From an uncultured Candidatus Saccharibacteria bacterium (lineage in GTDB: Bacteria > Patescibacteriota > Minisyncoccia > Phycocordibacterales > UBA2100): DNA of 64,000 nt. This document shows positions 35,148 to 56,499 of this stretch, piece after piece; position 1 is the stretch's first letter, and each line of letters opens with the position of its first letter. The notes beneath the pieces were generated by a model. The model made no database searches and was not told where the DNA came from. It saw nothing but the letters and a program-made list of their open reading frames with translations. The stretch is from contig CAZJEQ010000001.1 of the NCBI GenBank assembly GCA_964545165.1, forward strand, positions 1,971 through 65,970, read 5' to 3'. A program made the translations under genes and the position numbers.

Positions 35148-35621
35148 CTACAGATTCAAAAATTCAAAAATCTTGTGCGAGAGCGGCTCTTGCATGGGCA
35201 CCTCCTCGCATCGTTCGCGCAAATACGCGCGTATCAGATCGTGATCGATGTGCTCGATGGGGATGATGAGATTCGGCGACATGAATTTGACTGTATCGAT
35301 AAGCAGGAGCGGCCGACCCTTGTGATGCTCTTCCTCGACCCAAAACGAAATGATTTCTTCAAAGCGGTGTAGGCGACCGTTGATACGCAAGCCGCGGTCG
35401 GAGAGCTCAAACTGCGCGATCTCCGGCGGTGTGCGCGAGAGGAGCGCGATGGTGTAGGCGGCGATAAGGATGAGAAGTGCAAAGAGGAAGTCGTGTAGCA
35501 AGATACTCGTGAGTGCAATCGACACGGAGGCGATGCCGAGCGCCCAATACCAATCGCTGCCGCGCTCGATATGCTCGTGCTCGTACGCACTCCAACGCAG
35601 CGTCGTGTTTTCACCCGGCAT
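35148..35621 (-). CDS. hypothetical 2-TM membrane protein
   Basis: ORF with two hydrophobic helices; start ambiguous. Confidence 0.4.
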   Translation of the reverse strand: MPGENTTLRWSAYEHEHIERGSDWYWALGIASVSIALTSILLHDFLFALLILIAAYTIALLSRTPPEIAQFELSDRGLRINGRLHRFEEIISFWVEEEHHKGRPLLLIDTVKFMSPNLIIPIEHIDHDLIRAYLRERCEEVPMQEPLSHKIFEFLNL

Positions 35622-35692
35622 TGGCCAAATTGTAGCATCGCACTCTCTGAGCATGCGCTTTTCGTGCGTACGTGTTACAACGATGGCACGGA

Positions 35693-35812: not shown

Positions 35813-36817
35813 ATGGCATCTGGCGAAAAGGGGATGACACCGGTCATCGCAGCCCTTGTTGGCAATACGACCGTGACGCTCATCAAAGGGGCGGTCGCGG
35901 TATCTTCTGGTTCGAGCGCGATGTTCTCCGAGGCGGTACACAGCTTTGCCGACACCCTCAACCAGGCGCTCCTTCTCATCGGCTTGCGCCGCTCGCGCAA
36001 AAAGCCCGATGAGGAATTCGGGTATGGCTATGGATTCGAGAGATTCTTCTGGGCGCTCATTTCCGCCTGCGGTATTTTCTTTGTCGGCGCTGGCGTGACG
36101 ATTTATCATGGCATTACGAGCCTGCAGCATCCGAAGCCAGTTACTATCGACATACTCACCTTCGCGGTGCTCTTTATCGCGTTCGTCATTGAATTCTGGA
36201 CGCTCACTGTCGCTGCGCGAGCGCTTCGAGAATCGCACCCTGGATTTTCGTGGCGCGAGCGCCTCAATCATGCGGATCCAACGACGCTCGCGGTCTTCCT
36301 CGAAGATGGCATCGCCGTTATCGGTGTATCTATCGCGGCGGCGGCAATCTCGATTTCATACATGACGCAGAGCGTGACCTGGGACGCGTATGGTTCGATA
36401 CTGATCGGTATACTCCTCGCTATTGCGGCGGTGGTCCTCATTATCAAAAATCGTCAGTATCTCATCGGCCGCTCGATTCCCGAGAAAGAGCGCGCGGACA
36501 TCATCGATCTGCTTGTCAAAGATCCTGCGATCGAGCGCGTGATCGATTTCAAATCGACGGTACTCGATATCGGTGTGTACCGCATTAAATGCGAAGTGGA
36601 ATTCAACGGCTCCGCGCTTCTCCATGCCGCTCACCAAATGGATGAGCTCAAAAATGATTACGAAAAGATCAAAGACAACTACGAGGAATTCAAGAAGTTT
36701 TACGTCGATTATGCAGATAGAATTCCGCGTCTCATCGGTAAGCGTATCGACGAGATCGAGTCACGCATCCGCGAGCGTTTTCCGAATGTGCGCCACATTG
36801 ATATCGAAATCAATTAA
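35813..36817 (+). CDS. cation diffusion facilitator (CDF) family metal efflux transporter
   Basis: 6-TM N-terminal domain with HSFAD metal-site motif; cytoplasmic C-terminal CDF domain. Confidence 0.8.
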   Translation: MASGEKGMTPVIAALVGNTTVTLIKGAVAVSSGSSAMFSEAVHSFADTLNQALLLIGLRRSRKKPDEEFGYGYGFERFFWALISACGIFFVGAGVTIYHGITSLQHPKPVTIDILTFAVLFIAFVIEFWTLTVAARALRESHPGFSWRERLNHADPTTLAVFLEDGIAVIGVSIAAAAISISYMTQSVTWDAYGSILIGILLAIAAVVLIIKNRQYLIGRSIPEKERADIIDLLVKDPAIERVIDFKSTVLDIGVYRIKCEVEFNGSALLHAAHQMDELKNDYEKIKDNYEEFKKFYVDYADRIPRLIGKRIDEIESRIRERFPNVRHIDIEIN

Positions 36818-36883
36818 AAGCAGAGCGGCGCGATCCGTGAGGTCGCGCCGCCGATTATATCTGTAGTGCCTTGTGCGTGACCT

Positions 36884-37642
36884 CTAGCGGTCGCGACTGC
36901 GGCCGAGCACGTGGGGCACCATGTCTTGCACGGTGAATTTGCCATTCGGCTCGAGGCCCCAGCTGCGCGCTGCCGTAGCATTCGTGTACTGCATCTGCGA
37001 GCCGAGGAAGAGGTCCGATGGCATCTTCTCGATGGGGTAGGCCTTGATCACCTCGACGAACGCAGCGCAGAGTGCGTCACCGGCGTTGCTCGAGAGGTTC
37101 TCCTGCGAACCGGCAACGCGGTGAGCGATGATTGCTGCATCTTCACTCAGTATCTTGAAGGAGCCGCGCACCGCCGCCTGGATGTGCCGGCCGTCACGAG
37201 TGATGGCCGCGCAGCCCTTTGAGGTGCGGACGGTGTCGTCGTAGAAGAACACCGTCTCCGTAAACGGATTGAACCACGTGAGTGTCGCACCGGAAGCGTA
37301 TCGAATGTCCACTTGTCCCGCATCGTGTTCGATCACGCGATAGCTGCCGCGCTGCACTTGCAGCAAGCAAAAGTGGCTGGCGATCGTGGCGATGACGACG
37401 ATCGTCTGCAGGCACCGTTTGGCAGGTGTGTACCACGTTCGTCGATGCCATGTCTCCGCATTCTTTATGAATACTATGAGTATCCCAATGCCAAGCAGCA
37501 ACACACAGAGCGGCAGCAGGTTCTTCTCTGCGAAGCCCGTTATCGTCGAAATGACGCAGATGATGAGAACGCTGCCCGTCACGAGCAGCTCGAGCAGGTC
37601 GGGGTCGAAAGGAGTCGACCGCTGGATCCGGGTAGCATTCAT
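36884..37642 (-). CDS. membrane protein, tentatively SPFH/band-7-like
   Basis: N-terminal TM segments and weak SPFH-like pattern; call is tentative. Confidence 0.3.
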   Translation of the reverse strand: MNATRIQRSTPFDPDLLELLVTGSVLIICVISTITGFAEKNLLPLCVLLLGIGILIVFIKNAETWHRRTWYTPAKRCLQTIVVIATIASHFCLLQVQRGSYRVIEHDAGQVDIRYASGATLTWFNPFTETVFFYDDTVRTSKGCAAITRDGRHIQAAVRGSFKILSEDAAIIAHRVAGSQENLSSNAGDALCAAFVEVIKAYPIEKMPSDLFLGSQMQYTNATAARSWGLEPNGKFTVQDMVPHVLGRSRDR

Positions 37643-37764
37643 GGTATTTCTCCGTGCTTTCGGCAGCCGTAGCCCTCTTTGACTATCTCAGAAGGGACGG
37701 TTGTGTCTGCGAGGATACTTCCACTCGCGGCTTTTATTGTCAACGCATTTGATAGAGTGGTCGC

Positions 37765-38115
37765 ATGAGCTCATCAGAGGAGTATCGGGGAATCGTACAG
37801 AAAGGGGCACGGCGCGGCTCGGCGCTCGGGTATCCGACCGTGAATATCCCCATGACGGAGGGCGATGCCGACGGCATTTATGCGGCACGGGTGAGCGTGG
37901 GGGCAGTGGAATATCTCGCCGCTGCTTTTGCCGATCCGGCGCGCGGTGTCCTCGAGGCGCACATCCTCAGCTTCTTTGGTGATTTGTACGACAAAGAAAT
38001 CGCTATCACGCTGGAGAAGAAAATCCGCGACACAGAAACCTTCCACGCCGATGTTGATCTGAGGAACGCGATAGCCGAAGATGTGCAGGCGGTGCGTCAG
38101 TATTTCTCCGCATAA
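37765..38115 (+). CDS. monofunctional riboflavin kinase (RibF C-terminal-domain type)
   Basis: GIVQKGARRGSALGYPTVNI... flavokinase signature (G.G.G..LG.PT.N) in a 116-aa protein. Confidence 0.7.
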   Translation: MSSSEEYRGIVQKGARRGSALGYPTVNIPMTEGDADGIYAARVSVGAVEYLAAAFADPARGVLEAHILSFFGDLYDKEIAITLEKKIRDTETFHADVDLRNAIAEDVQAVRQYFSA

Positions 38116-38117
38116 TT

Positions 38118-38693
38118 ATGTTCAGCGGGATTGTAGAAGCCATCACGAAGGTGACGGCAATAAAAAAGCGTGGCGCGCATCTCGCGGTCGCGTTTACTAC
38201 GCCGAGCGGCTGGCGTCTGAAGAAAGGGCAGAGTGTCTCGATCGACGGGATCTGCTCCACGGTGGTGGCGATTGGCGAGGGAAACTTCTCTGTCGAGTAC
38301 ATGCAGGAAACGCTTGAGAAGACGACGGCGACTCACTTTGCACCGGGCTATGCGGTCAATCTCGAGCGCTCCCTCGCGGCGGGGAGTCGCATTGATGGAC
38401 ATTTTGTGGCGGGACACATCGATGCGCGTGCCGAGATTGCGCGCATTGAGGAAAATGTCTTCACCATCAAAGTGCCACGCACACTTGCGCGCTTCATTGC
38501 CAAGAAAGGTTCGATTGCCATCAACGGCGTCGCGCTTACCGTGACCGCGGTTACAGCGGGGAATTTTTCAGTCGCGCTTATTCCGTACACGATTGCACAC
38601 ACCACGCTCGGTGCGCTCGCGAAAGGGAGCGCGGTCAACGTCGAAGTCGACCTCTTGGCTCGTTACCTGGACGCGCTCCTCAAAAAGCGTTAG
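38118..38693 (+). CDS. ribE: riboflavin synthase alpha subunit
   Basis: MFSGIVE... start, duplicated lumazine-binding barrel; 191 aa. Confidence 0.85.
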   Translation: MFSGIVEAITKVTAIKKRGAHLAVAFTTPSGWRLKKGQSVSIDGICSTVVAIGEGNFSVEYMQETLEKTTATHFAPGYAVNLERSLAAGSRIDGHFVAGHIDARAEIARIEENVFTIKVPRTLARFIAKKGSIAINGVALTVTAVTAGNFSVALIPYTIAHTTLGALAKGSAVNVEVDLLARYLDALLKKR

Positions 38694-38703
38694 CGTACGG
38701 CGC

Positions 38704-39168
38704 ATGAGACGCACCGCACACACGACGCAGCGCACCACGAGAGGCGATGGGTCAAAGCTGCGCGTGGGCATTGCCGTCGCGCGATTCAACGAAGATATCA
38801 CCACGGCGCTCCTCGATGGCGCGCGCGAAACTCTTCGCGCCTGGGGTGTCAAAGATGCGCACGTGCACGTATCGCATGTAGCGGGGAGCTACGAGCTGCC
38901 GCTTGCATGTGCACGGCTCATCAAGCGTCACAAGCTCGATGCGGCACTCGCGCTCGGCTGCATCGTGAAAGGTGAGACCAAGCACGACGAATATCTCGCA
39001 CAGGCAGTTGCAAACGGATTGATGCAACTCATGCTGAGCACGAATGTGCCGATCGGATTTGGCGTGATTACTGCAAATACACTACAGCAGGCACGCGTGC
39101 GCTCGCGTGGCACCGCCAACAAGGGGAGTGAGGCTGCGGCCGCGGCACTCGAGAGCGCCTGCGCGTGA
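38704..39168 (+). CDS. ribH: 6,7-dimethyl-8-ribityllumazine synthase
   Basis: LRVGIAVARFNEDIT... and GETKHDEYLA motifs. The ORF-track N-terminus overlaps ribE; the real start is the internal Met. Confidence 0.85.
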   Translation: MRRTAHTTQRTTRGDGSKLRVGIAVARFNEDITTALLDGARETLRAWGVKDAHVHVSHVAGSYELPLACARLIKRHKLDAALALGCIVKGETKHDEYLAQAVANGLMQLMLSTNVPIGFGVITANTLQQARVRSRGTANKGSEAAAAALESACA

Positions 39169-39287
39169 CCGTGAAATTCTCACCAGGGAATTTCTAGAGT
39201 CATGCCCGGACAGACCCCTGCAGGGGTGTGACGTTGGGCATAACTCAGCAGATTCTCTGCTGAAAATCTGAAGGGTATACTGCCTGC

Positions 39288-40241
39288 ATGCTTAGTCGAC
39301 AAAAGCTTGCTGCTTGGGGCCCGGTACTCGTTTTTCTCGCCGCCATACTGTGGGCGACGGATGCGCCGTTTCGCGCACATCTCACAGAGGGACTCTCTTC
39401 GAATTTCATAGTATTTGCCGAGCACTTCGTAGATGTGCTGATAGCACTGCCGATTCTCTGGTGGATGCGATCAGATCTCAAGAAACTCTCGCGAAAGGAG
39501 TGGGGTGCAATTCTCTTGATCGCCATCGGCGGTTCCGCGCTGGCTTCCATCGCGTTTACCCAGGCATTCCATTACGTGAATCCATCTGTCGCGATTCTCT
39601 TGCAGAAAATCCAGCCGCTCATCGCCATCGTGCTCGCTGGCGTCTTCCTCGGTGAGCGCATGCATCGCAATTTTTGGATTTGGGCCGCGGTCGCGCTCTG
39701 TGGCACGTATCTGATTAGCTTCCCGACGCTTGTGCCGCAGCTCTACGCGGGAGAAGCCTTCAATCCCAACACCATCGGTGTACTTCTTGCGCTCACGGCG
39801 GCGCTGCTCTGGGGTGCGTGCACGGTAGTGGGCAAATTTGTTCTGCGCACGGCTGCCTTTCAAACGCTCACCGCGCTGCGCTTCGTCATCGCGTTTATTT
39901 TCTTGGGAATCCTCAATCTGGTGCAGGGTACCTTTCCGGTATGGAGTACCGTCACACCGACCGACTATTTCTTTATCGTTATCATCGCACTCGCTTCTGG
40001 CGTGTTTTCGCTCTTTCTCTATTACTACGGACTCCAATACACCAAAGCCTCGATTGCCACGATCGCAGAGTTGGGCTTTCCGTTTGCGGCAGTCGTCGTC
40101 AATGCGTACTTCATCGTGGGCGCCATGCAGCCGGGGACCGTGCTCGGTCTGCATCTCGGACAGTGGGTCGGCTCGATGATGCTCCTTGGCGCGCTCTACA
40201 TGCTCGCGCGCGTCAATCGCGAAGACGCGGCAGCTACATAA
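39288..40241 (+). CDS. EamA/DMT-family transporter embedded in the rib cluster (candidate riboflavin transporter, RibN-like)
   Basis: 10-TM duplicated EamA pattern; the riboflavin substrate is inferred only from genomic context. Confidence 0.5.
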
Positions 40242-40245
40242 CCAT

Positions 40246-40656
40246 ATGGCGCGCATCATGGTCTTCGGGACCTTCGATATGGTGCACGAAGGACATCTCG
40301 ATTTGTTTCGACAGGCGCGTGCGCTCGCACCTGAGCCACACCTCATCGTCTCTGTGGCACGCGACGCGGTAGCAGCGCGGATTAAGGGTGCCGCGCCTCG
40401 CAGACGTGAAGAAGCGCGTCGTGCCGCTGTCGCAGCAAGCGATCTTGTCGACGAGGCAGTCTTGGGAGACAGCGAAGGATATCTGCCGCATATCATCGCT
40501 GCGCAGCCGGAGATTATTGCATTGGGATACGATCAGGAAGGGGAATACGTCGCGCACCTCGCGCAGGATTTGGAAGCTGCGGGTCTTCGTGTGCGCATCG
40601 TGCGACTCGAGCCCTTCGAGCCCGAGATATACAAAACTTCCAAGCTGCGCTCGTGA
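40246..40656 (+). CDS. cytidylyltransferase-family protein, archaeal RibL-like putative FMN adenylyltransferase
   Basis: [13 protein letters not shown] (nucleotidyltransferase HxGH motif); ~137 aa; directly downstream of the rib genes and transporter. Confidence 0.5.
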
Positions 40657-40753
40657 ATCCCTCCCTTTCACAACCCGTGCTCACACGTTCCTGCGCAACG
40701 AGTTGCTGCTGTGCACATTGCGTTCAGTATGTTATTCGCGTAGAAAGGGAAGG

Positions 40754-41143
40754 ATGAAATATTTTGCAATCGATTACGGCTCAAAACGCATCGGCACGGC
40801 TGCTTCAAATGTTGAGGGCACGATCGCATTTCCACGTACAACCATCCCCAATGATGCCTCAGCCGTCACCACACTGGTCACCATGATTGCCGCAGAAAAA
40901 GCGGAGGCGATTGTGATCGGCGATACGCGCACGCTCGAAGGGAGCGAGAATCCGGTGACGAAAGCTGCACAGCAATTTGCGGAGAAGCTCGGTGCCGCCG
41001 CACAGGTGACGATTGTATGGGCCCGCGAGGCGGGAAGCACCATCGGGGCGGGGGAAATCTCTGGCACGAATCATGATGATGCGTCAGCCGCAGCGTTTAC
41101 CTTGCAGCGGTATTTGGATATGCATACAAGACGTGTAGAGTAG
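40754..41143 (+). CDS. ruvX: RuvX/YqgF pre-16S rRNA nuclease / Holliday junction resolvase-like
   Basis: MKYFAIDYGSKRIGTA... signature; 129 aa; GGA-rich RBS. Confidence 0.8.
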   Translation: MKYFAIDYGSKRIGTAASNVEGTIAFPRTTIPNDASAVTTLVTMIAAEKAEAIVIGDTRTLEGSENPVTKAAQQFAEKLGAAAQVTIVWAREAGSTIGAGEISGTNHDDASAAAFTLQRYLDMHTRRVE

Positions 41144-41147
41144 CGAT

Positions 41148-41495
41148 ATGGAAGAGGCACCACAGCCGACGGAAATTCAATACGAAGATTTTGCGAAGCT
41201 CGATATCCGCATTGGGCTCATCGTGGCCGCGGAAAAGGTGCCCGAGACCGACAAGCTCATCAAGTGCACGATTGATTTTGGCGCATTCGGACAGCGCACC
41301 ATCGTCTCAGGTATTGCTGCATGGAAGACGCCAGAAGAGCTGGTTGGAAAAAAACTCCCCTACATCGTGAATCTTGCACCGCGCATGCTCAAGGGGGTGG
41401 AAAGTCAGGGGATGTTGCTCGCGGCCAGCGATGAGACAGGTCTTGCGCTGATCGTTCCCGAGCGCGATGTGACACCTGGTACGCGCCTCAAGTAA
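41148..41495 (+). CDS. tRNA-binding protein (CsaA/Trbp111-like OB-fold)
   Basis: DIRIGLIVAAEKVPETDKLIKCTIDFG...RTIVSGI matches the Trbp111/MetG C-terminal domain. Confidence 0.75.
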   Translation: MEEAPQPTEIQYEDFAKLDIRIGLIVAAEKVPETDKLIKCTIDFGAFGQRTIVSGIAAWKTPEELVGKKLPYIVNLAPRMLKGVESQGMLLAASDETGLALIVPERDVTPGTRLK

Positions 41496-41587
41496 AGCGA
41501 GAGTCGATGCGCGACTGATATAATTGTGCGATGGATCTCTCCTTCGCGCGGAAGATTGGCGACGATGGTCGAGCTTTTTCGCGTATC

Positions 41588-42658
41588 ATGGCGCGCGCCT
41601 TCCCGATGCCGCAGCTGTTGATGCCGCCAGCAGCAGGTGTCGACATCTCGGACTCTTCAGTGAAGTGGCTCGTGCTCAAGCAGGTGGGCGAGTCGTACCA
41701 TGTCGATAATTACGGCGAGGTACCGCTCCCGAGCGGCGTCGTCGTGGCCGGTGCCGTACAGAATGTGGGAGCGCTTGCCGAGGCGCTCAAGGCGGTGCGC
41801 GTACAGCTCAAGGGCGTCCGCGCGGCGCATGGCGCGCTTCCTGAAGAAGCCGCGTACGTCTTCAGCATGCTCGTCCCGCACGCGACACCGCGCACCCAGG
41901 TCTTGCGCATGATCGAATTCGAATTCGAGGGTCGTGTGCCGATTGCGCCCACTGCTGCGGTCTACGATTACTCGCTCATTCCGGCAGAAGGCAATGAGCA
42001 GGAAGAGATCAGTGTGGTGGTATTCCCGAAAGACATCGCAGAAGCGTATACCGCCGCATTTGATCAGGCGGGCATGACGCTCCTCTCGCTCGAAGTCGAG
42101 GCACGCTCTATTGCACGCGCGGTCTCCTCCGGCGCACCCGATGAGCCTGTCACGCTTATAGCTGATTATGGTCGCGGCCGCACTGGCTTTGCCGTCCTCA
42201 AACGCGGCGTGCCGATTTTTACCTCCACAGTGCCAGTCGGAGGTGATGCGATTAATCGCGCGCTGATCGACACGATGCACATGAGCGAGGCAGAGGCGGC
42301 ACAGTTCAAGCTCGATGAGGGTGTTGATGCACAGGCCCAGCGCACCGCGGCACGCGACGCGATTTTGCCTGCGGTGAGCGCGTTTGCCGATGAGATTGCA
42401 CGTCACTATCGGTACTGGGATACGCGCAAGAATGATCGGGGTGATCGAGTCACCGCCGTGGGCAAGGTGATGCTCGTCGGCGGCAATGCGAATCTTCGCG
42501 GACTGGCAGACTACGTGGCAAGCAGGGTCCAGGCCCCGGTCGAAATAGGGCAGTGCTGGCGACATGTCGCGCCCTTCGATACATACATTCCGCCGATTGA
42601 TCGACACATCTCGCTCCAGTATGCGACCGCCGTTGGTCTCGCACTGCGCGCACACTAA
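41588..42658 (+). CDS. pilM: type IV pilus assembly protein PilM (actin-like ATPase)
   Basis: GVDISDSSVKWLVL start of the actin fold; GGGANLRGL motif; followed by pilN/pilO. Start ambiguous (41531-41606). Confidence 0.75.
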   Translation: MARAFPMPQLLMPPAAGVDISDSSVKWLVLKQVGESYHVDNYGEVPLPSGVVVAGAVQNVGALAEALKAVRVQLKGVRAAHGALPEEAAYVFSMLVPHATPRTQVLRMIEFEFEGRVPIAPTAAVYDYSLIPAEGNEQEEISVVVFPKDIAEAYTAAFDQAGMTLLSLEVEARSIARAVSSGAPDEPVTLIADYGRGRTGFAVLKRGVPIFTSTVPVGGDAINRALIDTMHMSEAEAAQFKLDEGVDAQAQRTAARDAILPAVSAFADEIARHYRYWDTRKNDRGDRVTAVGKVMLVGGNANLRGLADYVASRVQAPVEIGQCWRHVAPFDTYIPPIDRHISLQYATAVGLALRAH

Positions 42659-44292: not shown

Positions 44293-45027
44293 CTATTTGG
44301 TTGACTCGCTTTGTTGCTGCTCTGTCTTTTCAAGGGAAAGGTCTTGTGTGGCAATTGCCTGACGGAGCTTGAACAGACCGAACCACACGGCAGGATGGGC
44401 CTTCATTTTGTGTCGCGGACCGCACACGCAATTAGTTGCCCCATTGATGTGTTCTTGGCCGGAGAGCAACTTTTGCACGCGCGGCCATTCGATCATATTT
44501 GCCTGCATTTTGCGTATGCAGATTTCCACGTGTTCGCGAGAGCTGCCTGAACGATGGTAAGACTCAAATACACCTGCCGAGCCGTGTGAATAGTCATTCC
44601 AGGGCCACTCATCGTGCAAGTCGTAATGCCGCTGTCCATACAAGAATGGGTAGACCAGTTGCTCGAGATACACGGGGAAAGAAAATCCAGCGTTCATGCG
44701 CTCCACCTCTTCTACGGGCCCACACAAACAAGCGTGACCGGTTCCGTAGAAATGCCTATCGAGTATGAGCTCGACCTTATCGCCGAGTACCTGAAGTGTT
44801 GGGAGGGTTTTGTTGTTTCTGCCCTTCTTAATCGATATCTCGTACGCACCGCGGAGCACAACACCCACTCCAGTTTGTCCGGACTGCGTGAGCGGCGTGA
44901 AAGTATCTGTCGCCTTGTCGTAAGCGGCGGCGAACACAATCTCGCCGCTTATCTCCGTATGGTCAGCATTAACTGTGAGAAGTGGGTAGCTGGTTTGGAG
45001 CCATGTGACTTCATCCTTGGTGATCAT
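44293..45027 (-). CDS. uncharacterised protein co-operonic with the CD-NTase (two CxCGP motifs)
   Basis: Overlaps the 3' end of the nucleotidyltransferase gene; contains HACLCGP and NCVCGPRHK; no recognisable E1/E2/JAB/HORMA signature. Confidence 0.45.
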   Translation of the reverse strand: MITKDEVTWLQTSYPLLTVNADHTEISGEIVFAAAYDKATDTFTPLTQSGQTGVGVVLRGAYEISIKKGRNNKTLPTLQVLGDKVELILDRHFYGTGHACLCGPVEEVERMNAGFSFPVYLEQLVYPFLYGQRHYDLHDEWPWNDYSHGSAGVFESYHRSGSSREHVEICIRKMQANMIEWPRVQKLLSGQEHINGATNCVCGPRHKMKAHPAVWFGLFKLRQAIATQDLSLEKTEQQQSESTK

Positions 45028-45940
45028 GGCTGTCGCCCCACTGGCGCGTTGGAGTGAAGGAGCTGCCGGCTGCGTACGCTGCACCGGCAGCTGCGGATGC
45101 TGTGCCGGAAGCCGTAGCCGACTTAGTAGTAGGGCCGCTTTCGCGGAACTCCTGTTGCCAGACGGAAATGTCGTCTACGCCATCGAGCATTTTGTGTGCG
45201 TTGGCTGCAGCACGCGCAATATTAGTCTTCTCGGCGGGCTGCATCAGTTGTGATACTACGTTGTTGGTGTTCGCGGGATCGACGAGTTGCAAGGTCTCAA
45301 ACTCACTCTCGAACGCATCGAGTACGCCCAAGAAACTCTCTTTGAGATCGCTCTTGCTGCGCGAGCCCTTGAGGGCCTCAACGACAAAGAGCTCGAGGAT
45401 GAACGTCTTGATTTGGAGACGATTGCGATGCGCCCAGAGCTTGATCAACCGGATGACCGGTACACATTCGCTGTTGGTAATGTAGTCGATATGCGTCTTG
45501 AGGTTCGTCTTCATGCGCTCCTGCTCACCGTATTGGACGTGTAGGAACACATCCTTAGTGCCTTCTATAAAGCGGCCAGGAACGACGTCGATGTGGAAGT
45601 CGCCCGGCGCGGCCGCGCCCTTGAGATCAAGAATGCGCTCGGCCGACGCTTTTGGGCGCGTGACGTACTTTTCACGCAATCGCTTGGCAACATCTTCACG
45701 AATGTCTTTTAGCGAGCGGGAGTCGCCACTGAGGAAATAGCAGACGATGTCGAGATCGTAACGGTCGCTGATCATCGTGCCCTTCTCATACGAACCCGCA
45801 TACTTTATGTGCGGCGTGTCGCCGAACTCCGTGCGCAGGAATTTAGTAATCTCATCCTTGTGCAACTGGAGGTCTTTCTCCTGACGCGGAGTGAGATCCT
45901 GCGAAGCGAGTGTCTCTTCTAAATATTTTTTTGGTGTCAT
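45011..45940 (-). CDS. CBASS cGAS/DncV-like nucleotidyltransferase (SMODS domain)
   Basis: IKYAGSYEKGTMISDRYDLDIVCYF (GS...DxD) and FHIDVVP third acidic residue; Pol-beta NTase fold; low-complexity Ala/Ser tail. Confidence 0.75.
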   Translation of the reverse strand: MTPKKYLEETLASQDLTPRQEKDLQLHKDEITKFLRTEFGDTPHIKYAGSYEKGTMISDRYDLDIVCYFLSGDSRSLKDIREDVAKRLREKYVTRPKASAERILDLKGAAAPGDFHIDVVPGRFIEGTKDVFLHVQYGEQERMKTNLKTHIDYITNSECVPVIRLIKLWAHRNRLQIKTFILELFVVEALKGSRSKSDLKESFLGVLDAFESEFETLQLVDPANTNNVVSQLMQPAEKTNIARAAANAHKMLDGVDDISVWQQEFRESGPTTKSATASGTASAAAGAAYAAGSSFTPTRQWGDSHDHQG

Positions 45941-45949: not shown

Positions 45950-47068
45950 TTAATTAATGGTTAATGTGGGAACGAAAACACCCTGGTCTCTGTCATATAC
46001 GCGCATGGTCGGATCGGCCTTGGGGAGCAACTCTTTGCCACACAGCACCGCGACCGGAGCTGGTATCGCGGGAAATAAGTAGATAGTGCTGCCGCCGTAC
46101 TTCGCTCCTATCTCGCTAAGCACCTGCCGATATGTTGTTCTGAATTTTTCGAGGCGGGATTTGTAAGGCAAGAAACCTGGGTTGGCACCATCCACTTCTA
46201 TCTCATACACTGGCGCGTCGCCGACAATAGGACGATACATCTCCGAACCGTTCTTGCCGCTGAGCGAGAGTACCAGTGCTACTTTACTGTGGTCCGCGCC
46301 CTCAGTGTGGGTGACGCGAAATGTAAAATCGTCCTCCGCTGGCTCCTCTTTCCACTTCCAGTCATCGGTGTCGCGATGTTTTTGATAGAGGTCTACTGGC
46401 ACAATGTTTCCCAACTGGTTGCCTAGATGCACGAGAATGGGTATCGGCGCGAGTGCAAACACCGACAGATGGCTATACAACAGACCATCATTACCCCGAC
46501 GTAGTGATTGCCGGAGCTGTTCTGTTACCTCACTCGCGAATTGCGTCCAAAACGCTTCGTCGCCTCTACCTGCCTTGTGACTGAAGTCGAGCCATACGCC
46601 CTTGTCATCCGCTAAAGGACGCGATTGAACTGCCGGAAAAATATCGGCGGGTGCAATTTCAACCCGCCGATCGCCGATCGGTGCATTGAACCGGAGCACA
46701 GCAGTAGGACCTTCGACGCCGATGGCTGTCTGGCGTTGGATACGCTCCTCGTGCTTTTGTTTGTAGCTCCGTAGTTGCTCAATCGTATAGGACTCCGCAT
46801 TGCGCCCGTCTATGAGGCGCGAATGCTTGAGACATACGAGCATGAGGTTGTCGTAATCGGTTTGTAACTCGGACGATAACTCCTCATCTCCGCGTGGACC
46901 GTTCGGACTCGCCGCGACAATGTGCGCCATGTGGGCGAAATTATCTTCCTTCTGAGTAGTGTCATCGCGCCAAACCGGCTCGTTACAGTTTGGGAACTCG
47001 CAACGGCCTCCGGAATGGACCCAGAGTTTAAGCCTGACCTGCTCGGGTATGTTAAGACGCGCCGCCAT
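45950..47068 (-). CDS. CBASS effector Cap5-like: N-terminal HNH endonuclease + C-terminal SAVED domain
   Basis: HNH motif (LWVHSGGRCEFPNCN...NFAHMAHIVAASPNGPRGD); C-terminal ~250 aa SAVED-like; 10 bp upstream of the NTase gene. The ORF-track start at 47251 is an over-extension into the DUF2188 gene. Confidence 0.7.
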   Translation of the reverse strand: MAARLNIPEQVRLKLWVHSGGRCEFPNCNEPVWRDDTTQKEDNFAHMAHIVAASPNGPRGDEELSSELQTDYDNLMLVCLKHSRLIDGRNAESYTIEQLRSYKQKHEERIQRQTAIGVEGPTAVLRFNAPIGDRRVEIAPADIFPAVQSRPLADDKGVWLDFSHKAGRGDEAFWTQFASEVTEQLRQSLRRGNDGLLYSHLSVFALAPIPILVHLGNQLGNIVPVDLYQKHRDTDDWKWKEEPAEDDFTFRVTHTEGADHSKVALVLSLSGKNGSEMYRPIVGDAPVYEIEVDGANPGFLPYKSRLEKFRTTYRQVLSEIGAKYGGSTIYLFPAIPAPVAVLCGKELLPKADPTMRVYDRDQGVFVPTLTIN

Positions 47069-47075
47069 ATCGTTA

Positions 47076-47321
47076 TTAGTGCTTCTTGTCGCGAGGAGGA
47101 TTCGGATCATGACCAGGCGCAACAGTGTCGCTGTCGCGGATAGGTCCGCCATTCGGCTTGTGAATCCGTACCTCGCCACCACCGGAGTTACCGGAAAACT
47201 CCTTGGCGATTTTCTCCGCTTCCTTTTGTGTATCCGCAGTCGCGGACGCACGATCAGCTCCTTCTTTTACAACCTTCCAAACATCGGACCCCTTGGGGTT
47301 CGTGACGTGGTAATTAGCCAT
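47076..47321 (-). CDS. DUF2188-family small protein
   Basis: MANYHVTNPKGSDVWKVVKEGADRASATADTQKEAEKIA...IHKPNGGPIRDSDTV..DPNPPRD matches the DUF2188 pattern. Confidence 0.6.
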   Translation of the reverse strand: MANYHVTNPKGSDVWKVVKEGADRASATADTQKEAEKIAKEFSGNSGGGEVRIHKPNGGPIRDSDTVAPGHDPNPPRDKKH

Positions 47322-47326: not shown

Positions 47327-47962
47327 TTAGTACAGGTCGGGTGGCAAGACTCCCACCACCACACCCTGAATGCTGCAATTATCTGTTAATACGATCGGCG
47401 TGTGCGGATCGGACGACTTCGGGCGGAGGATCACCACGCCGTTCTTTCGTTCCAATATCTTTACGGTCGCTTCGTCGTTAATGAGCGCGACGACGATCTG
47501 GCCGTCGTCTGCGGATTCCTGCTGGCGCACGAGCACGATGCTTCTGTCATCGACGCTCACGCCGCCCACTCTCGCCTGGTTCATTGACGTACCAACGACA
47601 CGGAGCAGAAAGTACCGTGAGCCGGGACGCGCGAGCGCCGTCGAGACTGGAATCACTGCCTCGACATTCTGCTTCGCGAGCATCGGCGCACCGGCGGCTA
47701 CACTGCCCACCAATGGCACGTTCACCGTGGACACGGACGTGTTCGCATTGAGGCTCGGACTCGTGAGCCGAATCCTTCTGCCGAGGCGGCGTATAAGCCC
47801 CGCCGCTTCAAGGCGTTCGAGGGCCAAGACAGCCGAGCGGGGGGAGGCCTTCTTGGTCACCTGGTTGATTTCCCGCAGCGTGGGCGCTTCCTGACCGTGG
47901 ACGAGGCGGTTGCGGATGAGGAGATAGACCTGCTTGTCGCTCTCGCTGAGGTTATTAATCAT
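47327..47962 (-). CDS. lexA: LexA-like repressor (wHTH + S24 peptidase)
   Basis: N-terminal wHTH; S24 catalytic Ser in GTSM and Lys in VKIL; VAAG cleavage-site region. Confidence 0.8.
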   Translation of the reverse strand: MINNLSESDKQVYLLIRNRLVHGQEAPTLREINQVTKKASPRSAVLALERLEAAGLIRRLGRRIRLTSPSLNANTSVSTVNVPLVGSVAAGAPMLAKQNVEAVIPVSTALARPGSRYFLLRVVGTSMNQARVGGVSVDDRSIVLVRQQESADDGQIVVALINDEATVKILERKNGVVILRPKSSDPHTPIVLTDNCSIQGVVVGVLPPDLY

Positions 47963-48021
47963 AGGTATAAACAAGTATACACCCAAGTGGACTTTTTTGC
48001 AAGGGGTGCTAGGCTAGAGAA

Positions 48022-48600: not shown

Positions 48601-49872
48601 ATGCAAAAACTAGCCTGGAAAACAGAGCGGCGGCGGGTCAACGACCTGCTGCCCTACGAGGCCAACCCTCGTGTTATCAGCGATAAGCAGATGGAGGATC
48701 TCAAAAAGAGTCTCCGCATGTTCAACCTGGTCGAACTCCCCGCGATAGATGCGGACAACCGAATCATTGCGGGGCACCAACGCCTCAAGGCGCTTCAGCT
48801 TCTCGGGCGCGGTGAGGAACAGATCGAGGTGCGCGTCCCGAACCGCAAACTCACCAAGGCGGAATTCGAGCGGTACCTCGTCACCTCGAACGCGGTGGGT
48901 GGCGACTGGGACTTCAGCAAGCTCAAGTCGTTCGACCTCGAGCTGTTGCTCGACATCGGATTCAATGACGACGATGTCGCCAGCATTTGGGATGGCAACC
49001 TCGAAACCGAGGACGACGGCTTCGACGTAGAAAAAGAACTCGCCAAAATCACGAAGCCGAAAACGAAACTCGGTGACCTCTACCAGCTCGGGACGCATCG
49101 CCTCATCTGCGGCGACTCGACCGATCTAGCGGTGCTAAAGAAACTCGTCGGCAAGGATGCGGTCTCGATGATATACAGCGACCCCGTCTACAACATCGGT
49201 GTCGACTACAACAAAGGCATCGGCGGCAAGAAGTCATACGGCGGCACGGTGAACGATAAGCGCACCGATACCGAGTACAAAGTATTTCTCCGCACAACGC
49301 TCGAGAACGCACTCACCGTCTCCAAGCTCGACACGCATGTGTACTATTGGTGCGATGAATCGTACATCTGGCTTATTCAAGAGTTGTACCGAGAACTCGG
49401 TATCGAGAACAAGCGCGTATGCATGTGGATCAAGAACGGCCACAATCCGACGCCCGGCGTCGCGTTCAACAAATGCTACGAGCCCTGCGTGTACGGCGTG
49501 CGCGGAAAACCCCATCTCACCAAGGGCATCGACAACCTCAACGAGGTGTTCAACAAAGAACTCACGACCGGCAACCGGCTTATCGACGACATCCTCGACC
49601 TCCTCAACATCTGGCTCGTGAAGCGGATGGCGGGACAGGACTACCAGCACGCCACGGCAAAACCGCCCACACTCCACGAAAAAGCCATCCGGCGCTGTAC
49701 GCGCCCGGGTGATCTCATTCTCGACTCGTTCGGCGGCTCCGGCAGCACCTTAATAGCAGCAGAACAGCTCAAGCGGCGCTCCGCCTTGGTCGAACTGGAG
49801 CCGATATTCTGCGACCTCATCGTCAAGCGATATGAAGCACTCACGCACACAAAAGCCAAAAAGCTCAATTAA
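48601..49872 (+). CDS. ParB-like nuclease N-terminal domain fused to DNA methyltransferase (N6A/N4C beta-class)
   Basis: ParB-N motif (AGHQRLKA); SDPVYN (DPPY-like) catalytic motif; C-terminal DSFGGSGST AdoMet-binding motif. Confidence 0.75.
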   Translation: MQKLAWKTERRRVNDLLPYEANPRVISDKQMEDLKKSLRMFNLVELPAIDADNRIIAGHQRLKALQLLGRGEEQIEVRVPNRKLTKAEFERYLVTSNAVGGDWDFSKLKSFDLELLLDIGFNDDDVASIWDGNLETEDDGFDVEKELAKITKPKTKLGDLYQLGTHRLICGDSTDLAVLKKLVGKDAVSMIYSDPVYNIGVDYNKGIGGKKSYGGTVNDKRTDTEYKVFLRTTLENALTVSKLDTHVYYWCDESYIWLIQELYRELGIENKRVCMWIKNGHNPTPGVAFNKCYEPCVYGVRGKPHLTKGIDNLNEVFNKELTTGNRLIDDILDLLNIWLVKRMAGQDYQHATAKPPTLHEKAIRRCTRPGDLILDSFGGSGSTLIAAEQLKRRSALVELEPIFCDLIVKRYEALTHTKAKKLN

Positions 49873-50605
49873 GGTCGGTGACGTCTTCTGCATCGGCGAC
49901 CACGTACTCGGCTGCGGCGATGCCCGCGATGCCGACTTCGTGAATCGCGTCATCGGCAAGGCCAAGATCGCACTCATTCTGAGCGACCCGCCGTATGGCG
50001 TGGCATTCGTCGAGAGCAAGGAATCCTTCACGAACATCAAGGTACAAAAGAGAATCCTCAACGATGGAATCGTCTCGGAATCGCAGTACGCGCAATTCAC
50101 GAAGGACTGGCTTGTGCCGGTCGTGCCGCATCTTGCGAGCAAGAACAGCGTCTACATCTTCAACTCCGACAAGATGCTCTTTGCCCTGCGCGAGGGCATG
50201 GAGCGCTCAGGCATCCGCTTCGCACAACTCTTGGTATGGATCAAAAACCATGTCGTGGTCGGGCGCAAAGACTATCTTCCCCAGCATGAGCTAGTGGCAT
50301 ACGGCTGGCATGGCACGCATGACTTCAAGAAAGCGAAGGATAAATCCATCCTCTTCTATCCGAAGCCGAGCAAGAGCCCGCTGCACCCGACACAAAAGCC
50401 GGTAGGACTCCTGCGCCGTCTCGTCCTCAACAGTTCCGACATCAAAGGTGTGGTGTACGACTGCTTTGCGGGGTCGGGCTCGACCGGCATCGCCGCGGAG
50501 CAGTGCAAGCGCAAGTCGATCCTCATCGAGCGGGACGAGGAGTATTGCCAGACCATTATCAGCCGCTTCGAGCGGGAGTTCGGACTCAAGGCGACAAAGG
50601 TATGA
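49832..50605 (+). CDS. DNA methyltransferase (beta-class N6-adenine/N4-cytosine)
   Basis: SDPPYG catalytic motif followed by CFAGSGSTGIAAE motif I; overlaps the previous gene by ~40 nt. Confidence 0.75.
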   Translation: MKHSRTQKPKSSIKVGDVFCIGDHVLGCGDARDADFVNRVIGKAKIALILSDPPYGVAFVESKESFTNIKVQKRILNDGIVSESQYAQFTKDWLVPVVPHLASKNSVYIFNSDKMLFALREGMERSGIRFAQLLVWIKNHVVVGRKDYLPQHELVAYGWHGTHDFKKAKDKSILFYPKPSKSPLHPTQKPVGLLRRLVLNSSDIKGVVYDCFAGSGSTGIAAEQCKRKSILIERDEEYCQTIISRFEREFGLKATKV

Positions 50606-51072
50606 AAAAGGACCGCACCAAAAACCTCTTTCTGGAGCAGCTTCGGAAAATCCCGATCGTGCAAATCGCGTGCGAGAAAGTCGACATCTCGCGCAACACC
50701 ATCTACCGCTGGCGCAAAGAAGAGCCTGAATTCGCTAAGACGATGGACGAGGCGCTCACCGACGGCGAGGCGGTCGTCAACGACATGAGCGAATCGCAGT
50801 TGCTCTCCAAGATCAAAAACGGCGAATGGCCTCCCATCGCGTTCTGGCTTCGCAAACGCCACCCGAAATTCAAAGACCGCCTCGAAATTACCGGCATCTT
50901 GCAAGGACCGCAGGAAGAGCTGTCCCCCGAACAAGAGGCTGTCGTTAAAGAAGCGCTGCGCCTTGCTTCGTTATCCGTCGAGCAGCCACTAGAACAACCA
51001 ATCGAACAAGCGGATACCGCGCAAGGTGCGGAAGAAATTAGTCATAAGAAAAAAGACCATGAACAAAATTAA
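50602..51072 (+). CDS. phage terminase small subunit-like HTH protein
   Basis: ACEKVDISRNTIYRWRKEEPEF HTH typical of small terminases; overlaps the MTase stop and the TerL start. Confidence 0.55.
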   Translation: MKKDRTKNLFLEQLRKIPIVQIACEKVDISRNTIYRWRKEEPEFAKTMDEALTDGEAVVNDMSESQLLSKIKNGEWPPIAFWLRKRHPKFKDRLEITGILQGPQEELSPEQEAVVKEALRLASLSVEQPLEQPIEQADTAQGAEEISHKKKDHEQN

Positions 51073-52552
51073 TACCAACGAGAATTACCAGTCCAACAGC
51101 GGGCTTACACCAGAGCTTGCGGAGAAAATGTTCCGCGACCGCCGCATCCGAACGGCGATCACGCGGCAAAGCCACTTCATGTTCTTCCATTTCTACTTCG
51201 CGCACTATGTGAAGTACGCGACCGCGCCATTCCAACGCGAGCTATTTCACCTGAGCGAACGGCAGGACATCAAAAATCTTTTTGTCGTCGCGTTTCGCGG
51301 ATCGGCAAAGTCGACAATATTCACGACCTCGTATCCGGTGTGGGCGATTCTTGGAGAACAGCAGAAAAAATTCGTGCTCATCCTCTGCCAGACGCAAGCG
51401 CAGGCAAAGCAACACATGATGAACTTGCGCCGCGAGCTTGAGAGCAACGCACTTCTCAAGAACGACCTTGGTCCATTCCAAGAAGAGAATAACGAGTGGG
51501 GTTCGTCGTCGCTCGTGTTCTCGAATCTCAACGCTCGCATCACGGCAGTCTCATCCGAGCAGAGCATTCGCGGTCTGCGCCACAATCAGCATCGTCCCGA
51601 CTTGATTGTCGGCGACGACCTAGAGGACCTCGCATCTACGAAAACGCGAGAGGGACGCAACAAAACCTACCAGTGGCTCACGGGAGAGGTTGTGCCCGCA
51701 GGCGACCGCAATACGCGACTCGTCATAGTCGGCAACTTGCTCCATGAGGACTCGCTCCTCATGCGGCTCAAAGAGGATGTCGATAAAGGGAGAATTAATG
51801 GCGTATTCAAGGCGTACCCACTGATACAAAAGGGCCTCATCGTATGGCCCGGCAAGTATCCCTCGATGGCGGACATCGAAGAGGAAAAATCGAAAGCGGC
51901 GAATGAGTACGCATGGCAGCGAGAGTATCTGCTGCACATTGTACCGGCTGAAGATCAGGCGATTCATCGTGAATGGATACAGTACTACGACACCATACCG
52001 GCACCGATTCGGGTCATCGACAATTACACGTCACACAAGGAGGTTCGCATCGGTATCGACCCGGCCATCTCAAAAAACGACGCTGCGGATTATACGGCTA
52101 TGGTGCCCGGGCTGTTGTACGAACTCAGGGAGGGGTATCGGATTTATATTCTCCCGAAAATCATCAATAGGCGTATGTCATTCCCGGAAACGGTGGAAAT
52201 GTGCAAGACGCTTGACGACAGCTATGGCGAAGAGGATACGGGACGTCCAACATTCGTGATCGAAGATGTTGCGTATCAGAAAGCGTTGCCGCAGCAACTG
52301 AAGGACGAAGGGATATGGAACGTGATGACAACGCGGCCGGGCAATCAAGACAAGCGTAGTCGTCTCGTGCTCACAGCGAATCTCATCAAGAGCGGCAAAA
52401 TCCTCTTTCCGAGGGAGGGCGCGGAGCAACTCATACAGCAAATCGTACACTTTGGCGTTGAGAAGCACGACGACCTTGCCGATGCGTTCGCAAATCTCGT
52501 GCATAGTGTTTCAGAGGATCCACCGTGCGTACCGAGAATATTTTTTTTCTGA
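51059..52552 (+). CDS. phage terminase large subunit
   Basis: Walker A-like VVAFRGSAKST and Walker B DLIVGDDLED; C-terminal RNase H-like nuclease (IGIDPA...DAADYTAMV). Confidence 0.75.
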   Translation: MNKINTNENYQSNSGLTPELAEKMFRDRRIRTAITRQSHFMFFHFYFAHYVKYATAPFQRELFHLSERQDIKNLFVVAFRGSAKSTIFTTSYPVWAILGEQQKKFVLILCQTQAQAKQHMMNLRRELESNALLKNDLGPFQEENNEWGSSSLVFSNLNARITAVSSEQSIRGLRHNQHRPDLIVGDDLEDLASTKTREGRNKTYQWLTGEVVPAGDRNTRLVIVGNLLHEDSLLMRLKEDVDKGRINGVFKAYPLIQKGLIVWPGKYPSMADIEEEKSKAANEYAWQREYLLHIVPAEDQAIHREWIQYYDTIPAPIRVIDNYTSHKEVRIGIDPAISKNDAADYTAMVPGLLYELREGYRIYILPKIINRRMSFPETVEMCKTLDDSYGEEDTGRPTFVIEDVAYQKALPQQLKDEGIWNVMTTRPGNQDKRSRLVLTANLIKSGKILFPREGAEQLIQQIVHFGVEKHDDLADAFANLVHSVSEDPPCVPRIFFF

Positions 52553-52597
52553 TCTCCAGGGCTGACTCGATATTCGATGATGATGACGACTAACGAC

Positions 52598-53467
52598 TTA
52601 CTGGCATTGCGGACTAAGCGAGCGACTGTATTTTGCGAGCAATGCATCAAGTGTATCGAATGATTCTAGATAACTCTCGCTCAGACCCTTCCATCCGTCG
52701 CAGGACGCTGGGTAGTAGTACTTTGCACTGTAGTGAGAGGACGTGTAGTACTTGCTGCCGGTGGAGGGTTGCGCGACCGGATCCGCTTTGCCGTTGCAGG
52801 TGGTCGGTGACCACAAACCCTTACCAGCATTCTGCGCGGCAAGTTGAGCGGCTTTGAATTCCGCTTGATACTTGTACGCTTTATCGTACGTGTACTCGTA
52901 TGCGTACCCATCGGCGACCATATTCTTGTTGAAGAATAGGCTGTCATCGCGGTAGATGTAGACGAGGAGCCGTCCATACTTGTCTCGCGTGTCCTGGGTT
53001 GGGTCGGCTTCAATGCGAACCTTCTGACCAGACAGTAATGCTTTTGCCCGGTTGGATGCTTCGGTGCCGAAACATTGTACGGGCTTCCGTGGATCAACGG
53101 TCTCTGGAGTATCGATGCCGATAAGTCGGAGCGTTTCTACTGTGCCGCCCATGTTTATCTTAAGCGTGTCGCCATCAACAACGTCGGTGACTGCGTAGTA
53201 CTGATACTGTGGAGCGGACTGAGTCGGAGTAGCGGGAGTCTGTGTAACCGACGGTGTTTGCTTCGGCGCAGTAGCCTCTGTCTTTGCGGTAACGAATGTC
53301 ACTTCTGTGACAGACTCAGATGTTGTTGCTTCAGTAGCAGTTTCTGTCTGCGAGATTTGCTGCAGCTGTTCTTGGGCAGGCGCTGGTTCCGGCGAAGGGG
53401 CGAAAATGCCGATGATAAAAAGTAGGCCGATGACACCTCCAACACCGTAAAGAATTTTTCTAATCAT
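52598..53467 (-). CDS. membrane-anchored thermonuclease (SNase-like) family protein
   Basis: N-terminal TM helix; Thr/Glu-rich linker; SNase motifs (VVDGDTLK, RLIGIDTPE, YGRLLVYIY). Confidence 0.7.
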   Translation of the reverse strand: MIRKILYGVGGVIGLLFIIGIFAPSPEPAPAQEQLQQISQTETATEATTSESVTEVTFVTAKTEATAPKQTPSVTQTPATPTQSAPQYQYYAVTDVVDGDTLKINMGGTVETLRLIGIDTPETVDPRKPVQCFGTEASNRAKALLSGQKVRIEADPTQDTRDKYGRLLVYIYRDDSLFFNKNMVADGYAYEYTYDKAYKYQAEFKAAQLAAQNAGKGLWSPTTCNGKADPVAQPSTGSKYYTSSHYSAKYYYPASCDGWKGLSESYLESFDTLDALLAKYSRSLSPQCQ

Positions 53468-53607
53468 ATGGCTCAGGTCTTGGTGTTCTAACTTAGGTTC
53501 GAGGGTATGCGAAGGGGGTTACCAACTCTTGCCTTTGATTGACATTCGTAGCCTAACATAATTATTCCACTTTGGAATATCCCAATACGGAATACACGCT
53601 TATAGGT

Positions 53608-53826: not shown

Positions 53827-53917
53827 GCTATAGGCGCATCCTTTAGATGCCTGGCCCCTTGAAGCTTTGAATAGTCTCCACTGGATTTTCAGCTGGATTC
53901 GCGGTATTCCTTAAGGT

Positions 53918-54499: not shown

Positions 54500-54539
54500 A
54501 CGTTTTAGTGATTACAAAATTTACTAATAATTTACCCCA

Positions 54540-56497: not shown

Positions 56498-56499
56498 AA

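Follow-up and report, generated by a model that had tools for sequence, protein, structure and literature searches.

Canonical bacterial RibF (type I FAD synthetase) takes riboflavin through two chemical steps on a single polypeptide, i.e., phosphorylation to flavin mononucleotide (FMN) by a C-terminal kinase module and adenylylation of FMN to flavin adenine dinucleotide (FAD) by an N-terminal FMN adenylyltransferase (FMNAT) module (PF06574). Archaea have a CTP-dependent riboflavin kinase (RibK) and RibL, a single-domain nucleotidyltransferase (NTase) of ~140-150 aa (PF01467) with an HxGH motif, as in MJ1179 of M. jannaschii, two cysteines of which (C126 and C143) have been linked to air sensitivity. 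Here we describe a five-gene cluster (positions 37765-40656) in a 64,000-nucleotide stretch of contig CAZJEQ010000001.1 (assembly GCA_964545165.1; the whole stretch is hereafter called the window) from a groundwater bacterium with a tiny genome, in which a bacterial-type riboflavin kinase (RFK) is followed by riboflavin synthase (RibE), 6,7-dimethyl-8-ribityllumazine synthase (RibH), a permease of the EamA/DMT superfamily and a small NTase resembling RibL. We consider it quite likely that this cluster is a flavin-cofactor module of Kaiserbacteria-like Parcubacteria (Candidate Phyla Radiation, CPR), one that serves riboflavin uptake and/or synthesis, the conversion of riboflavin to FMN by RFK, and that of FMN to FAD by the RibL-type NTase.

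RibL-type enzymes are known outside Archaea, as EhFADS of Entamoeba histolytica is an archaeal-type, cysteine-less protein for which experiments have established ATP-specific FAD synthase activity (PMC11423594). Among riboflavin transporters, RibN has been cited as an EamA-domain protein (PMC10557607) and its orthologues are reported only in Proteobacteria; positional clustering with flavin genes is a criterion that has been applied to riboflavin transporters, ImpX, RfnT and RibXY among them (PMC4418817). For Parcubacteria, a 2015 survey found no riboflavin biosynthesis genes, ribK/ribL, ribF, riboflavin transporter or FMN riboswitch in the genomes examined, which nevertheless encode the FAD-dependent MurB and TrxB; where these organisms obtain their flavin cofactors was not settled (PMC4508563).

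A stand-alone kinase and the last two riboflavin genes

All five genes lie where a sequence-only reading of the window had placed them, on the forward strand and separated by gaps of 2, 10, 119, and 4 bp (coordinates and domain matches in Table 1). As that reading had also proposed, the kinase is a stand-alone flavokinase and not a bifunctional RibF: it carries the Flavokinase domain alone, the FMNAT module (PF06574) is absent, and the RibF models of NCBIfam match it solely over their C-terminal positions ~190-310, far under the whole-protein equivalog cutoffs. It aligns to residues 193-308 of E. coli RibF and 161-279 of T. maritima RibF, and contains the motifs G-x-x-LGYPTVN, GIYA, and LEAHIL, which across the alignment take the form LG(Y/F)PT(V/A)N, G(I/V)Y, and (L)E-x-(H/Y)-(I)L. 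Since the gene 5' of it (36884-37642) runs on the opposite strand, no FMNAT module precedes RFK and the kinase is truly stand-alone. A promoter and terminator scan of 36800-41600 returned nothing exceeding shuffled expectation, so it is from the short intergenic gaps only that we infer an operon structure, i.e., co-transcription of the five genes.

For comparison, we used a set of 83 related loci drawn from Kaiserbacteria/Paceibacterota (80 GTDB species, the loci L001 and L002, of which one is a JGI and one a Logan contig, and the window itself). A region of +/-10 kb was taken around the NTase in the 82 relatives, cluster-gene homologues were located by phmmer, and all 83 represent one lineage with a common NTase-RuvX-tRNA_bind-PilM synteny. 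The open reading frames (ORFs) of the window and of the 82 loci were searched with the E. coli RibD, RibA, RibB, and RibF N-terminal module sequences as seeds. The RibF N-terminal (FMNAT) module found no match in the ORFs of the window or in any related locus, and the C-terminal module of the same protein matches 68 RFKs.

RibE and RibH, which the sequence-only reading had likewise seen behind the kinase, both exceed curated NCBIfam equivalog cutoffs (RibE: PRK09289, 201 bits, cutoff 155, and TIGR00187, 166 bits, cutoff 157; RibH: TIGR00114, 143 bits, cutoff 84.6). The start of RibH is likely the ATG at 38704 rather than 38593, as it is the first to give a protein of normal length (154 aa). 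Since both genes are intact, the flavin metabolism of the organism extends, or formerly extended, beyond riboflavin import. Of the early pathway, no homologue of RibD, RibA, or RibB was found in the window ORFs or in the 10 kb on either side of the NTase in the 82 related loci, nor do these genes occur in the Pfam-annotated gene list of L001. An FMN riboswitch was detected neither at the Rfam gathering score in the whole window nor at E <= 10 in 36800-40800. The remark of the sequence-only reading that ribD/ribBA genes and an FMN riboswitch are not visible nearby therefore holds. This absence, which covers the 64-kb window and the 82 related loci only, is consistent with a salvage-oriented metabolism. 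Either the last two riboflavin steps (RibH and RibE) are the only ones kept, and are patchily being lost, or ribD, ribA, and ribB lie elsewhere.

In the scheme that we propose, the EamA permease would take up riboflavin and/or RibH and RibE would produce it from lumazine. RFK, a stand-alone kinase of bacterial type, would phosphorylate riboflavin to FMN, and the RibL-type NTase would adenylylate FMN to FAD, replacing the missing N-terminal FMNAT module of canonical RibF. The likeness to RibF thus lies in the same two chemical steps, in a kinase homologous to the RibF C-terminal module, and in the membership of both FMNAT types in the HxGH nucleotidyltransferase superfamily, whereas the cluster differs from it in lacking the PF06574 module, in placing the two activities on separate genes and, in relatives where these are fused, in having the kinase at the N-terminus and the transferase at the C-terminus, the reverse of RibF.

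The nucleotidyltransferase belongs to the RibL branch

The NTase was expected to be an HxGH protein of cytidylyltransferase fold resembling archaeal RibL, and sequence, profile, and predicted fold all agree best with RibL and its relative of known structure, 3GLV. Residues 14-17 of the NTase form an HEGH motif (within an N-terminal (H/T)xGH region, residues 8-17), a YKTSKL motif lies at the C-terminus, and the protein has zero cysteines. Among all PDB sequences, the NTase finds its best match in 3GLV of Thermoplasma volcanium (E 5e-19, 35% identity, full length), deposited as 'LPS core biosynthesis protein'; PDB entries of TagD/TarD match at E 3e-6 to 6e-5, and those of ECT, CCT, and HldC are also far weaker than 3GLV. 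NCBIfam contains no RibL model, and we used a hidden Markov model (HMM) of archaeal RibLs, for which a version of the MJ1179 sequence (96-97% identical to Methanocaldococcus proteins) served as seed; after seeding, the set comprises only entries taken from databases, and for many of these the name given by NCBI, UniRef, or JGI is 'FAD synthase'. With 161 bits on this HMM 3GLV is itself a RibL, and the window NTase reaches 86 bits. In the opposite direction, a profile of the CPR NTase family gives 3GLV 94 bits, TagD 50, CCT 45, HldC 43, and E. coli HldE-II 38. Aligned to one another by hhalign, the CPR NTase family and archaeal RibL match with probability 99.9 (E 3e-32, 38% identity). The AlphaFold2 model of the NTase (predicted local distance difference test score of 90), compared with the PDB by Foldseek, again has 3GLV as top match (E 1e-12, TM-score 0.80/0.89, root mean square deviation 2.1 A).

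In a neighbor-joining tree the CPR NTases form a clade of their own (200/200 bootstraps), the archaeal RibLs group with 3GLV (192/200), the two appear as sisters in 129/200 replicates, and a grouping of CPR NTases with HldE-II was recovered in 0/200. Of 1.84 billion representatives at 50% identity, 78 were retrieved at E <= 1e-30 and 1610 at E <= 1e-10. A score of more than 110 bits is reached by many representatives of ~140 aa on the CPR profile as well as on that of RibL, and the two families are therefore bridged by intermediates. The closest homologues (65-78% identical) are without exception proteins of metagenome-assembled Parcubacteria genomes, which carry the labels Kaiserbacteria, Paceibacterota, or Parcubacteria, and a 100%-identical NCBI protein is encoded on a contig of 131,742 bp.

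TagD, HldE-II, CCT, and PPAT all score much lower than RibL. On TIGR01518 (TagD) it obtains 31.2 bits (cutoff 165.4) and on TIGR02199 (rfaE_dom_II) 47.9 bits (cutoff 181.5), a model on which true RibLs are also sub-cutoff, at 90 bits. The ranked NCBIfam list (rfaE_dom_II, cyt_tran_rel, HldE, TagD, PPAT, all sub-threshold) is identical for the NTase and for genuine archaeal RibLs, hence these sub-threshold matches do not argue against RibL. The profile comparison between RibL and TagD-type enzymes that the sequence-only reading had suggested accordingly comes out on the side of RibL and not of TagD/NadD, the TagD and HldE-II cutoffs being missed widely. An assignment to TagD/TarD or HldE-II/HldC was rejected, as the protein falls far below the equivalog cutoffs and 3GLV and RibL score much higher. 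The NTase thus belongs, by sequence, to the RibL branch of HxGH nucleotidyltransferases, and we predict that it makes FAD from FMN.

The window NTase shares with archaeal RibL (MJ1179, 3GLV) the single-domain HxGH architecture, the predicted fold, and 35-38% identity over the full length. The two differ in that it belongs to a bacterial (CPR) clade, lacks C126 and C143 of MJ1179, has as its partner a bacterial-type ATP riboflavin kinase (PF01687) and not the archaeal CTP-dependent RibK, and shows, like other CPR NTases, a C-terminal YK(T/S)SK where methanogen RibLs have C-x-x-(C/H)-S-S. EhFADS offers a further parallel, being a RibL-type enzyme outside Archaea that works without the RibL cysteines beside a conventional riboflavin kinase (PMC11423594), although it is eukaryotic, 168 aa long and ATP-specific by experiment, and is set beside the window NTase by description and not by sequence.

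The kinase and nucleotidyltransferase genes remain together in related genomes

In nearly all of the 83 loci, NTase, RuvX, tRNA_bind, and PilM follow one another in this order, and it is the content 5' of the NTase that varies. RFK lies 5' of the NTase on the same strand in 68 of the loci, typically with 3-15 bp to the next gene, and the pairing is conserved across several architectures: RFK-NTase (26 loci, in nine of which the two are joined in frame as one RFK::NTase ORF of ~250 aa), RFK-EamA-NTase (17 loci), RFK-RibE-RibH-NTase (11 loci, plus two in which a divergent RibH lies on the opposite strand), RFK-RibE-RibH-EamA-NTase (nine loci, the window among them), and RFK-EamA-RibE-RibH-NTase (three loci). 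The remainder carry an NTase without RFK nearby (12 loci) or are interrupted by a contig end (three loci). These architectures are interleaved on the NTase tree, which suggests that genes have been gained, lost, and rearranged repeatedly, and not that a single order was preserved.

Fusion of the two genes extends beyond these loci. With one fusion as query, we found ~77 distinct 90%-identity clusters (from four independent sources, NCBI, JGI, ENA, and Logan) that combine PF01687 and PF01467 in one protein of ~250 aa, reaching down to ~47% identity, all with the kinase N-terminal; a few also carry a fused RuvX. Such in-frame fusions support a functional link between kinase and transferase (the 'Rosetta stone' argument), and no other FMNAT candidate was found next to any of the 68 RFKs.

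In some relatives other ORFs are inserted inside the cluster (a two-component system, methyltransferases, and EEP-family proteins), among which no extra flavin gene was recognized, judged from their first residues only and without a Pfam scan. Two loci have a gene of the Exo_endo_phos (EEP) family in the arrangement RibH-EEP-NTase (L001, 9240-10004; L002, 671-1435), and at a matching position in L008 (EamA-ORF-RibE, 2924-3658) there is a 244-aa ORF (MKLICLNVWGG...) that is EEP-like by eye only. The divergent lumazine-synthase-like genes mentioned above occupy the RibH position on the opposite strand in L029 (9477-9974) and L059 (9481-10035, minus strand), at E ~1e-12 to the window RibH.

An EamA permease confined to the flavin cluster

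The sequence-only reading had described an embedded EamA/DMT transporter of ~10 transmembrane segments, and the analysis likewise finds a pair of EamA domains and some 9-10 hydrophobic segments. Both are traits of the superfamily and not specific to RibN, and no NCBIfam equivalog is reached. The permease has orthologues (E 1e-123 to 1e-162) in 30 of the 83 loci, and all 30 sit within the RFK...NTase cluster, none elsewhere in the loci, so that the orthologues of the transporter in these loci are indeed flavin-associated, as had been anticipated. In each case the gene either follows RFK immediately or is placed between RibH and the NTase, and it stays beside RFK even where unrelated genes intervene before the NTase.

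Its presence is independent of that of RibE/RibH (12/25 vs 17/43, Fisher p = 0.61), and riboflavin, not a pathway intermediate, therefore fits as its substrate; a role as precursor importer tied to RibE/RibH was rejected for want of any such association. For the 17 species that have RFK-EamA-NTase without any RibE/RibH, an exporter would make little sense and riboflavin import would be the only sensible role. We thus consider that the permease probably brings riboflavin in, a substrate and direction deduced from gene context. Like ImpX, RfnT, and RibXY, it is implicated by clustering with flavin genes (PMC4418817); it differs from RibN and ImpX, to which it is likened by description and not by sequence, in that no FMN riboswitch accompanies it.

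The spacer between ribH and the permease gene (39169-39287, 119 bp) is not conserved, measuring 15-33 bp in relatives with identical gene order. Within it, a TATACT lies ~7 nt 5' of the permease ATG, which might, speculatively, be an internal promoter giving a near-leaderless transcript.

How firm is the assignment?

Several observations weigh against the flavin-cofactor scheme. With respect to the NTase, the FMNAT role of this bacterial clade is itself a prediction from sequence. The RibL profile is poorly selective (E. coli HldE domain II obtains 72 bits vs 86 for the window NTase), the bootstrap support joining CPR NTases to RibL is only 65% (129/200), and the RibL cysteine pair is missing, 83 of 120 close NTase relatives being entirely cysteine-free and the motif C..(C/H)S(S/T) occurring in 0 of 150 NTase representatives vs 102 of 120 archaeal RibLs. 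The two methanogen RibL cysteines are also missing from 3GLV, and since both 3GLV and the active Entamoeba enzyme do without them, we regard them as a mark of a methanogen subgroup and not of fold or activity. With respect to gene context, the adjacency counts are not independent events, because the 83 loci are one lineage with shared synteny. In the 12 loci that carry an NTase without RFK nearby, the NTase abuts conserved upstream neighbors; the RFK seed had no match among the upstream ORFs listed there, a search made without a family-profile scan and without looking for archaeal RibK. More distant NTase relatives are fused to unrelated partners, i.e., NUDIX (6), Ham1 (4), TruB (3), 5-FTHF cyclo-ligase (3), and AsnC/MarR-type helix-turn-helix domains (2), in representative proteins (P0345-P0491) that may be real fusions or gene-calling read-throughs. 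The truB-ribF pairing is a classic bacterial neighborhood, and among the known partners of FAD synthetases are FAD pyrophosphatases of the NUDIX type. As to the permease, it has no detectable specific similarity to any characterized transporter (the best PDB match, the choline importer LicB, is at only E 3e-4), and many EamA proteins are exporters, the NCBIfam matches of this one including YddG, YedA, and RarD. Finally, RibE and RibH are left unexplained if riboflavin is merely imported.

Alternatively, the cluster could be the tail end of a complete de novo pathway, with ribD and ribA/ribB elsewhere in the genome and the permease either an unrelated passenger or an exporter of excess flavin or some other metabolite. 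In favor of this are the intact RibE and RibH that exceed their curated cutoffs, the dispersal of rib genes in certain bacteria, for example E. coli, the many exporters among EamA-family members, and the coverage of only 64 kb of a contig of at least 131,742 bp. We nonetheless regard this as rather unlikely, given that RibD, RibA, and RibB are missing from the window, from +/-10 kb around the NTase in 82 loci and from the Pfam list of L001, that 17 relatives keep RFK-EamA-NTase without RibE/RibH, where an exporter has little to do, and that no riboflavin biosynthesis genes were found in the Parcubacteria genomes surveyed (PMC4508563).

A bolder possibility, which we hold to be quite unlikely, is that the early genes are lacking altogether and that RibH and RibE finish riboflavin from 6,7-dimethyl-8-ribityllumazine or 5-amino-6-ribitylaminouracil leaked by a host or neighbor. 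The cluster would then be a 'last-steps-only' cross-feeding module, with the permease as the first flavin or precursor importer identified in CPR and the RFK and RibL-type pair as a bacterial reinvention of RibF.

It is very improbable that the NTase is some other small cytidylyl- or adenylyltransferase (TagD-, HldE-II-, or PPAT-like) of a syntenic block before ruvX that has flavin genes beside it by chance in one lineage, for although the NTase-RuvX-tRNA_bind-PilM order is retained in the 12 loci without RFK, rfaE_dom_II and TagD are the best specific NCBIfam matches, the RibL HMM also scores HldE-II well, and the fusion partners of distant relatives are heterogeneous, genuine archaeal RibLs yield the same NCBIfam ranking in a collection that has no model for them, the scores of 31 bits (TagD, cutoff 165) and 48 bits (rfaE_dom_II, cutoff 181) are far under membership, in-frame RFK::NTase fusions are kept to ~47% identity in ~77 clusters, and none of the 68 RFKs has an alternative FMNAT candidate beside it.

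Other features of the window

The genes downstream of the NTase (RuvX, the tRNA-binding-domain protein, and then pilM/N/O) are probably a block of conserved synteny and not part of flavin metabolism. On the other side, a small membrane protein with a conserved motif (Table 1) is also present in L026, L032, L068, L076, and L079, and is a conserved upstream neighbor of the flavin/NTase locus in Kaiserbacteria-like genomes.

Further away, the window holds an anti-phage operon (44293-47251, minus strand) of the type known as cyclic-oligonucleotide-based anti-phage signaling system (CBASS), followed by a LexA gene, and a reverse transcriptase fused to a trypsin-like protease. A group of phage-like genes (48601-52552) may represent what is left of a prophage in this CPR genome. 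Around the flavin cluster the G+C content is 55-60%, a value in keeping with Kaiserbacteria-type Parcubacteria, and from ~52000 to 64000 it drops to 0.46-0.52 vs 0.55-0.60 in the rest of the window; this region contains copper-handling genes, including CsoR-like and cupredoxin-like ORFs recognized by eye, and is probably a horizontally acquired copper-resistance island.

Table 1 Flavin cluster, its neighbors, and other features of the window (positions in the window)
Feature	Position	Strand	Length and supporting matches
Monofunctional riboflavin kinase RFK (PF01687 type)	37765-38115	+	116 aa; Pfam Flavokinase E 1.4e-21
Riboflavin synthase RibE	38118-38693	+	191 aa; Pfam Lum_binding x2 E 6e-44; NCBIfam PRK09289
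6,7-dimethyl-8-ribityllumazine synthase RibH	38704-39168	+	154 aa; Pfam DMRL_synthase E 1.3e-46; TIGR00114
EamA/DMT-superfamily permease, candidate riboflavin importer	39288-40241	+	317 aa; Pfam EamA x2 E 3e-37
RibL-type NTase, predicted FMNAT	40246-40656	+	136 aa; Pfam CTP_transf_like (PF01467) E 1e-11
RuvX, downstream neighbor	40754-41143	+	Pfam RuvX
tRNA-binding-domain protein, downstream neighbor	41148-41495	+	Pfam tRNA_bind; then pilM/N/O
Small membrane protein with conserved motif WSAYEHEHIERGSDWYWALG	35148-35654	-	no Pfam family
Reverse transcriptase fused to trypsin-like protease	7099-8691	+	PADLOC retron type XI 'RT-Protease' 3e-149
E2-like protein, CBASS-type operon	44293-45084	-	PADLOC E2 2e-25
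CD-NTase/SMODS cyclase, CBASS-type operon	45011-45940	-	PADLOC Cyclase 2e-67
HNH-SAVED effector, CBASS-type operon	45950-47251	-	PADLOC 5e-116; Pfam SAVED 6e-40
LexA	47327-47986		
Two DNA methylases, phage-like	48601-49872 and 49832-50605		
Terminase large subunit, phage-like	51026-52552		Terminase_6C just under Pfam cutoff
Multicopper oxidase	54540-56090		
Cu P-type ATPase with HMBD	58282-60504		

Significance for flavin metabolism in Parcubacteria

Each part of this system is of a known kind: besides RibE/RibH, there are a monofunctional RFK, a predicted FAD synthetase of RibL type, and a DMT permease located among flavin genes. It is their combination in a bacterium that is unusual, with a predicted archaeal-type FMNAT that lacks the RibL cysteines displacing the N-terminal module of RibF, a bacterial kinase, in some relatives a fusion of the two in reverse order, and a dedicated EamA permease without a riboswitch. 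Annotation pipelines already name some relatives of the NTase 'FAD synthetase' or 'FAD synthase' and the route to FAD is unchanged, so the assignment is not new to databases and the advance is incremental; in the literature on CPR, Patescibacteria, or Kaiserbacteria with riboflavin kinase or FAD synthetase, we found no description of an RFK and RibL-type system. For at least the Kaiserbacteria-like lineage, the cluster offers a concrete and testable answer to the question of where the flavin cofactors come from, in the form of a bacterial-type kinase, an archaeal-type predicted FMNAT, and a dedicated DMT-family permease. The RFK::RibL-type fusions represent a predicted bifunctional FAD synthetase with a domain order opposite to that of RibF, and the permease is a candidate for a new family of riboflavin transporters.

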